Positions 17,559-18,344 of a stretch of DNA of 64,000 nt are shown here, piece after piece (position 1 is the first letter of the stretch; every line of letters starts with the position of its first letter). The position numbers and the translations under genes are program-made. The stretch lies in the NCBI RefSeq assembly GCF_055900595.2, contig NZ_CM148325.1; one strand, written 5' to 3'. Under the pieces are notes generated by a model. It was not told where the DNA came from and searched no databases. It was given only the letters and a program-made list of their open reading frames with translations.

Positions 17559-17567
17559 GAGAATTAT
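17559..17567. repeat. IS1 target-site duplication, left copy (GAGAATTAT)
   Basis: Identical 9 bp directly abuts both ends of the IS1 element. Confidence 0.85.
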
Positions 17568-17622
17568 GGTGATGCTGCCAACTTACTGATTTAGTGTATG
17601 ATGGTGTTTTTGAGGTGCTCCA

Positions 17623-17898
17623 GTGGCTTCTGTTTCTATCAGCTGTCCCTCCTGTTCAGCTACTGACGGGGTGGTGCGTAACGGCAAAAGCACCGCCGGA
17701 CATCAGCGCTATCTCTGCTCTCACTGCCGTAAAACATGGCAACTGCAGTTCACTTACACCGCTTCTCAACCCGGTACGCACCAGAAAATCATTGATATGG
17801 CCATGAATGGCGTTGGATGCCGGGCAACCGCCCGCATTATGGGCGTTGGCCTCAACACGATTTTCCGCCATTTAAAAAACTCAGGCCGCAGTCGGTAA
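17623..17898 (+). CDS. insA: IS1 protein InsA
   Basis: 91-aa [46 protein letters not shown]... recognised as IS1 InsA. Confidence 0.95.
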
Positions 17899-18320
17899 CC
17901 TCGCGCATACAGCCGGGCAGTGACGTCATCGTCTGCGCGGAAATGGACGAACAGTGGGGATACGTCGGGGCTAAATCGCGCCAGCGCTGGCTGTTTTACG
18001 CGTATGACAGGCTCCGGAAGACGGTTGTTGCGCACGTATTCGGTGAACGCACTATGGCGACGCTGGGGCGTCTTATGAGCCTGCTGTCACCCTTTGACGT
18101 GGTGATATGGATGACGGATGGCTGGCCGCTGTATGAATCCCGCCTGAAGGGAAAGCTGCACGTAATCAGCAAGCGATATACGCAGCGAATTGAGCGGCAT
18201 AACCTGAATCTGAGGCAGCACCTGGCACGGCTGGGACGGAAGTCGCTGTCGTTCTCAAAATCGGTGGAGCTGCATGACAAAGTCATCGGGCATTATCTGA
18301 ACATAAAACACTATCAATAA
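17817..18320 (+). CDS. insB: IS1 transposase reading frame InsB (expressed as InsAB' fusion by -1 frameshift)
   Basis: 167-aa [50 protein letters not shown]... recognised as IS1 InsB. Confidence 0.9.
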
Positions 18321-18335
18321 GTTGGAGTCATTACC

Positions 18336-18344
18336 GAGAATTAT
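18336..18344. repeat. IS1 target-site duplication, right copy (GAGAATTAT)
   Basis: Identical to 17559..17567. Confidence 0.85.

Follow-up and report, generated by a model that had tools for sequence, protein, structure and literature searches.

Evidence for a recent, simple IS1 transposition into an already pseudogenised and divergent allele of the OI-1 fimbrial islet of Escherichia coli

The whole 64-kb stretch of DNA that was analysed, referred to here as the window, carries an IS1 element lodged at the very start of a chaperone gene in a fimbrial operon, and the question raised by this locus is whether the element silenced a functional operon, whether it marks the scar of a rearrangement, or whether it simply transposed into genes that were already decaying. 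Taken as a whole, the account that we consider very likely to be correct is the last of these, namely a recent simple transposition of IS1 into an already pseudogenised, divergent allele of the islet known as OI-1. It corrects the tempting inference that an insertion sequence found within an operon is the cause of the inactivation of that operon.

The operon lies in an islet between rpsT and nhaR. The flanking backbone genes, ileS, ribF, (yaaY) and rpsT on one side and nhaR and nhaA on the other, are 97–100% identical to E. coli references, and the islet itself is AT-rich, with 25–40% GC against ~50–55% in the backbone. This composition fits the target preference of IS1, which favours AT-rich DNA. 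The features of the islet and of the inserted element are collected in Table 1.

Table 1. Features of the rpsT–nhaR islet and of the inserted IS1 element, in window coordinates
Feature	Position	Strand	Details
espX1-like gene, first of islet, counterpart of O157:H7 z0025	15257..16729	+	intact ORF, 490 aa; synteny with annotated espX1 of L001–L003
Fimbrial major-subunit gene, z0024-like, YehD-like	16973..17506	+	intact, 177 aa
Intercistronic hairpin	17514..17538	+	11-bp stem, then AUUAUUU; subunit–chaperone gap; RNA fold -17.4 kcal/mol, z = -3.2
Chaperone ribosome-binding site GGAG	17546-17549	+	
Chaperone ATG	17557-17559	+	
Target-site duplication, left copy	17559..17567		GAGAATTAT
IS1, intact	17568..18335	+	768 bp; co-oriented with fimbrial operon
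IRL	17568-17590		end of IS1
insA	17623-17898	+	InsA, 91 aa
A6C slippery motif AAAAAAC	17874-17880		within IS1
insB' frame	reaching 18320		-1 shift gives InsAB' fusion, 232 aa
IRR	18313-18335		end of IS1
Target-site duplication, right copy	18336..18344		GAGAATTAT
Chaperone remainder, pseudogene, z0023-like, StcB/YehC-like	18345..19016	+	alignment, profile hits
Usher pseudogene, z0022-like	19029..20574	+	alignment to L003
Last operon gene, split by G7 tract 20832-20838	20587..21547	+	two ORFs
108-aa FmrA-like ORF, counterpart of O157 z0021/fmrA	20587-20913	+	position and numbering from PMC10877973, PMC9387321
227-aa ORF, z0020-like	20864-21547	+	

Profile matches on the gene products identify a chaperone-usher operon, with PF00419 for the subunit (found on the identical protein), PF00345/PF02753 for a PapD-like chaperone and PF13954/PF00577 for an usher. 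Among the NCBIfam models, the subunit is YehD-like (NF011766, E=2e-33 but below the cutoff), the chaperone StcB/PRK15218-like and the usher PRK15217-like, and the protein of the espX1-like gene gave no NCBIfam match. The window has the same rpsT–nhaR position and the same gene order (espX1, subunit, chaperone, usher, fmrA/z0020) as OI-1 (z0020–z0025) of E. coli O157:H7, which is described as a putative fimbrial cluster (PMC10877973, PMC9387321). The allele is nevertheless a divergent one, with 80–94% nucleotide identity to OI-1 (90–94% for the fimbrial genes), and whereas the chaperone and usher of the O157 islet are annotated as intact, those of the window are pseudogenised and interrupted by IS1. 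Against other E. coli alleles more generally, the nucleotide identity is 80–82% for the espX1-like gene and ~90–91% for the subunit gene. The espX1 gene is annotated as frameshifted or truncated in several reference genomes and is intact in the window. No name for the rpsT–nhaR fimbrial locus was found in a term search of Wurpel et al. 2013 (PMC3559732).

Among complete RefSeq E. coli genomes the best match to the operon is 93.3% identical, compared with 99.1% for ileS and nhaAR, and a near-full-length operon of other alleles is carried by ~1,150 of the 5,426 genomes. The exact subunit protein occurs in 718 blocks of a public assembly index, on contigs of up to 5.36 Mb (AP025754.1); the lineage of the window, assigned here to E. 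coli sensu lato, is common, yet missing from the E. coli collection searched. A scan of species-representative genomes with 24 nt of the flank gave no match.

The element is bounded by two copies of GAGAATTAT, which proved identical on re-reading, as the earlier note had stated. This 9-mer has no third occurrence on either strand of the 64-kb window, and the chance of two fixed 9-mers being identical is ~4e-6; duplications of 8 or 9 bp are known to be made by IS1 (PMC12428005). The 30-mers across the junctions of the occupied site are TTACATGAGAATTATGGTGATGCTGCCAAC and GTTGGAGTCATTACCGAGAATTATAACAGC. Since the duplication spans the G of the chaperone ATG through the second base of codon 4, the description of the gene as split after its third codon is in essence accurate. 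Excision in silico of IS1 and one repeat yields ATGAGAATTATAACAGCATTGCTGATG..., read as ATG AGA ATT ATA ACA GCA TTG CTG ATG..., and re-translation of this start gives MRIITALLMSFFILPVHA followed by GVVIYGTR, where MRIITALLMSFFILPVHA is a signal peptide. The rebuilt start predicted by the earlier note was thereby recovered, and it agrees with the N-termini of the annotated chaperones that other E. coli carry at this locus.

In the occupied state IS1 parts the Shine-Dalgarno sequence, the ATG and the first three codons of the chaperone from the body of the gene. The start signals now drive a 10-codon ORF, MRIMVMLPTY*, which runs into the left end of IS1. On the other side, the right copy of the duplication has neither the AT of the ATG nor a Shine-Dalgarno sequence, and an in-frame TTG at 18322, within the right end of IS1, is without a ribosome-binding site.

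The inserted IS1 is ordinary, its kind being fully known. It shares its length, its ends and the insA/insB' arrangement with an A6C -1 frameshift with the known family, comprising the K-12 isoforms IS1A–F and an IS1B-type copy (WP_095033700.1), and the same is true of its duplication of a 9-bp target in AT-rich DNA, so that it departs from the family in location alone. Its terminal inverted repeats are imperfect (GGTGATGCTGCCAACTTACTGAT and GGTAATGACTCCAACTTATTGAT, complementary at 18 of 23 positions), the InsAB' fusion scores 243.8 bits against the NCBIfam model NF033558 "IS1 family transposase" (cutoff 100), and an annotated IS1B-family element of E. coli NZ_OZ197100 (L001) matches it over all 768 bp (100% identity). 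With coding and end sequences intact, and identical to copies elsewhere, it looks functional and is probably active. A simple promoter scan of the right end of IS1 revealed no convincing outward or hybrid promoter, the count falling within the shuffled expectation.

Evidence on the origin of the insertion comes from empty sites. All 19 of the fetched public loci with the same islet allele carry the sequence ...GATTACATGAGAATTATAACAGCATTGCTG..., with a single GAGAATTAT and no IS1, and both IS1 junctions are absent from every one of these IS1-free loci (0/19). Six of them (L005–L010) were retrieved from public assemblies through an exact match to the 177-aa subunit protein, and their flanks are colinear with the window and 99.9–100% identical to it; three came from a metagenome scan with 24 nt of the left flank, and ten, all empty, from a look-up of a 97-aa chaperone fragment. 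Closest of all is L007, in which 1 SNP (at 18923) is the sole difference from the window over ~11.7 kb. This was a simple IS1 transposition into this site, and it is very recent, because the site is empty in 19 of 19 loci, one of them separated from the window by that single SNP. The earlier note had argued for a simple and recent transposition rather than a rearrangement, and the empty site that this predicts is the one found. A misassembled IS1 copy in the window is unlikely because the duplication is perfect and the site is colinear with the empty sites.

A megablast search with both junctions, followed by reading of the junctions, detected the insertion at the site of the window in 0 of 5,426 complete RefSeq E. 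coli genomes. Two apparent full-length matches were rejected: the one in NZ_OZ197100 is an artefact of joined pieces, its IS1 lying elsewhere, between truncated genes and without duplication, and the other, in EC2, is a separate insertion 7 bp away. Two further matches seemed to place IS1 inside the operon, and their IS1 copies were located between nhaA and mokC, outside the islet. A look-up for other occupied sites with the 109-aa TTG-start ORF that spans the junction yielded no public record; the 97-aa ORF was discarded as a marker of occupied sites, being called at empty sites as well. The insertion is apparently private to the strain, a conclusion that rests on the absence of other occupied sites in the data searched, where occupied sites are under-detected, since assemblies from short reads are interrupted at IS copies and the look-ups are biased towards long contigs. 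It could serve as a strain-specific typing marker.

The condition of the operon before IS1 arrived can be read from the remaining genes. When the window, with IS1 excised, was aligned to the intact operon of NZ_CP018241 (L003, O157-type), the chaperone showed a 1-bp deletion in the A-run 18600–18606, independent of IS1, and even after excision its frame meets a stop at ~105 codons. The usher has suffered an 11-bp deletion (~19366), a +1 (~19492), a -1 (~19975) and an internal deletion of ~894 bp (junction ~20475); ~1.5 kb of the original 2451 bp is left, spread over three reading frames, and the C-terminal third is gone. Consistent with this, NF011763 matches three usher fragments that together cover profile positions 1–498 of 826, the rest being largely missing. 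Thus neither chaperone nor usher has the intact reading frame that an operon able to assemble fimbriae would be expected to carry.

These lesions are shared with relatives that lack the element. The chaperone frameshift is carried by all 19 IS1-free relatives, the ~894-bp usher deletion by every IS1-free locus that reaches that far, and the 11-bp usher deletion by all of them except the more divergent L011. The latter has the chaperone -1 and the ~894-bp deletion, and lacks both the 11-bp deletion and the -1 at 19975. Because the spread of the lesions differs, the first set including L011 and IS1 being confined to the window, their order can be deduced: the chaperone -1 and the ~894-bp usher deletion would have come first, further usher indels next and IS1 last. 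Since the IS1-free relatives have the chaperone and usher lesions too, the comparison shows that the genes for fimbrial assembly were already pseudogenes before IS1.

The course of events that best accounts for these observations would be that an IS1B-type copy transposed by the normal IS1 mechanism, with a staggered 9-bp cut, insertion and a gap repair that duplicated GAGAATTAT, and that its target was the extreme 5' end of the chaperone gene in a Yeh/Stc-like chaperone-usher islet between rpsT and nhaR. The insertion would then amount to one further decay step in a dead operon, having little or no effect on fimbriation, and it is probably selectively near-neutral. Less transcription may reach the fmrA-like ORF downstream. 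IS1 lies ~20 bp downstream of the intercistronic hairpin, a terminator- or attenuator-like structure which probably limited read-through out of the subunit gene even before the insertion; the hairpin was not flagged by a simple terminator scan.

The FmrA-like ORF lies directly downstream of the usher and is the sole intact gene downstream of IS1. A full-length alignment with the corresponding ORF of the O157-type locus L003 indicates roughly 85% identity by eye. In the near-identical relative L005 the tract that splits the last gene is a G6, and a single ORF of 319 aa results; an intact 960-bp gene is also annotated at this position in strain SCU-482 (L024). The tract could therefore serve as a slipped-strand switch between the G6 and G7 states, that is between an adhesin-like protein and a short FmrA-like form, and the comparison suggests that the "FmrA" of O157 may itself be an N-terminal fragment of a frameshifted fimbrial gene. 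In O157:H7 the product of z0021 (fmrA) represses flagellar synthesis, acting on class II/III flagellar genes (PMC10877973, PMC9387321).

As regards the consequences of the insertion, one might suppose that IS1 was the primary inactivating and polar mutation of an otherwise functional fimbrial operon. IS1 is classically polar and here it cuts the chaperone start signals off from the body of the gene, yet the excised chaperone still ends early, the usher lacks ~900 bp and carries three further frameshifts, and all of these lesions recur in IS1-free relatives; we regard this reading as very improbable. The statement in the earlier note that the insertion is polar on the whole fimbrial operon does not hold if it is meant to name the disabling event, which the chaperone and usher lesions precede, and polarity on fimbrial assembly is moot because the operon was already dead. 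An effect on motility is a different proposition, in which the insertion would block read-through from the subunit promoter, lower the expression of the FmrA-like ORF and so raise motility. It draws on the position of IS1 between the promoter region of the operon and an FmrA-like ORF of 108 aa that is still intact, and on the hypermotility that follows deletion of fmrA in O157:H7 (PMC10877973, PMC9387321). On the other hand, deletions of z0022–z0025 in O157 left motility unchanged, according to the same reviews (PMC10877973, PMC9387321), which suggests that fmrA expression is independent of the integrity of the upstream operon; moreover, a strong hairpin already stands 3' of the subunit gene, and the homologue in the window is roughly 85% identical, its repressor function being putative here and known from O157:H7 alone. 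We consider such an effect improbable.

The origin of the insertion has also to be weighed against what other IS1 copies at this locus have done. An IS1 identical to that of the window occurs in NZ_OZ197100, where espX1 on one side and the subunit gene on the other are both truncated and no duplication is present; for these reasons it is taken to be deletion-associated. In K-12 (L004) an IS1A, in the same orientation as the IS1 of the window, forms the arrangement nhaR–IS1–rpsT, again without target duplication; in window coordinates the left junction falls at ~15036, on the 5' side of espX1, and the right one at ~21410, which leaves 138 bp of the last gene and means that nearly the whole islet has been deleted. 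These two examples, with deletions alongside and duplications absent, are what might lead one to see in the IS1 of the window the mark of a rearrangement, by IS1–IS1 recombination or an IS1-mediated adjacent deletion. The flanks in the window are, however, identical 9-mers, and in 19 empty-site relatives the sequence runs straight across the site without any loss; the probability that we assign to a rearrangement is therefore close to nil. Much the same applies to the suggestion, raised in the earlier note, that the K-12 copy descends from the insertion in the window and underwent flanking deletions later. Locus and orientation agree, and IS1 is known to promote adjacent deletions, but the allele background and the IS1 isoform of K-12 are unlike those of the window: what remains of its flanks matches the O157-type locus L003 at 98.8% and 100% identity, compared with 88.7% and 94.3% for the window, its junctions lie elsewhere, and its IS1A is 99.1% identical to the IS1 of the window, with 7 base differences. 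Furthermore, an insertion that is absent from a relative at 1 SNP in ~11.7 kb must be far younger than the split between the lineages of the window and K-12. The flanks, the junctions, the IS1 bases and the youth of the insertion together exclude common descent, which we consider next to impossible; the K-12 IS1A is an independent event, and this specific insertion is not its ancestor.

A simple, very recent transposition into a decayed operon thus remains the preferred explanation, and further IS1 copies in the islet bear on the choice of target. In NZ_CP104681 an IS1A lies upstream of espX1. The metagenome contig SKET01006169.1 (L011, positions 1-127) ends in 127 bp of the left end of an IS1, inverted and abutting espX1 at ~15477 of the window, which represents a further independent event in the same islet allele. 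In EC2 (NZ_CP058571, L002 5292-6059) an IS1 variant occurs 7 bp upstream of the site of the window and in the same orientation. It is 90.8% identical to the IS1 of the window, with 71 differences, and its 8-bp duplication, GTTACGTG, includes a GTG start, so that the chaperone ORF is preserved; the usher of EC2 is intact too.

Directly 5' of both the window and the EC2 insertions lies the 12-mer GGAGTGATTACA (17546–17557), which contains the chaperone Shine-Dalgarno sequence and, read in the same orientation, agrees with the right terminus of IS1, GGAGTCATTACC, at 10 of 12 positions. For a randomly chosen point of the window, the empirical P of an equally good match no farther than 30 bp to either side is ~0.014, the match having been noticed post hoc, and by a rough calculation the placement of two of six independent IS1 events within 8 bp, over ~7 kb, has a P of ~0.03. 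IS1 and Tn9, according to work of the 1980s, reportedly prefer AT-rich DNA, with end-like sequences present occasionally at hot spots. It is conceivable that InsA or InsAB' binds the end-like 12-mer; both insertions also lie a short distance 3' of a strong hairpin. The chaperone start of the OI-1 islet might then be an IS1 hot spot where the end-like sequence and the AT-rich DNA steer the element, with lower fmrA-like expression as a secondary outcome, a proposal that we put forward tentatively and think rather unlikely. It is founded on two independent insertions in the same orientation, separated by 7 bp, of IS1 variants that differ by 9%, one in the window and one in EC2, which belong to unrelated E. 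coli lineages. The near-coincident insertion in EC2 offers a small lead on the target choice of IS1.

The insertion is otherwise a textbook one in a decaying operon and mostly without wider import. Its value lies in the documentation of the occupied site, the empty sites and the order of the lesions, which together trace, step by step, how an AT-rich adhesin islet of horizontal origin underwent pseudogenisation.

Elsewhere in the window, the interval from nhaA to dnaJ, occupied in K-12 by hokC/mokC and IS186, contains a small island on the minus strand (23968–27349). Within this island, the ORF at 24432–24977 carries an IS1/IS1595-type zinc-binding domain (NF050000, 35.4 bits) and overlaps the ORF at 23968–24504, the two possibly constituting one frameshifted gene; they are accompanied by an arylsulfatase-like gene (25074–26567) and a PRK11528-like gene (26588–27349).
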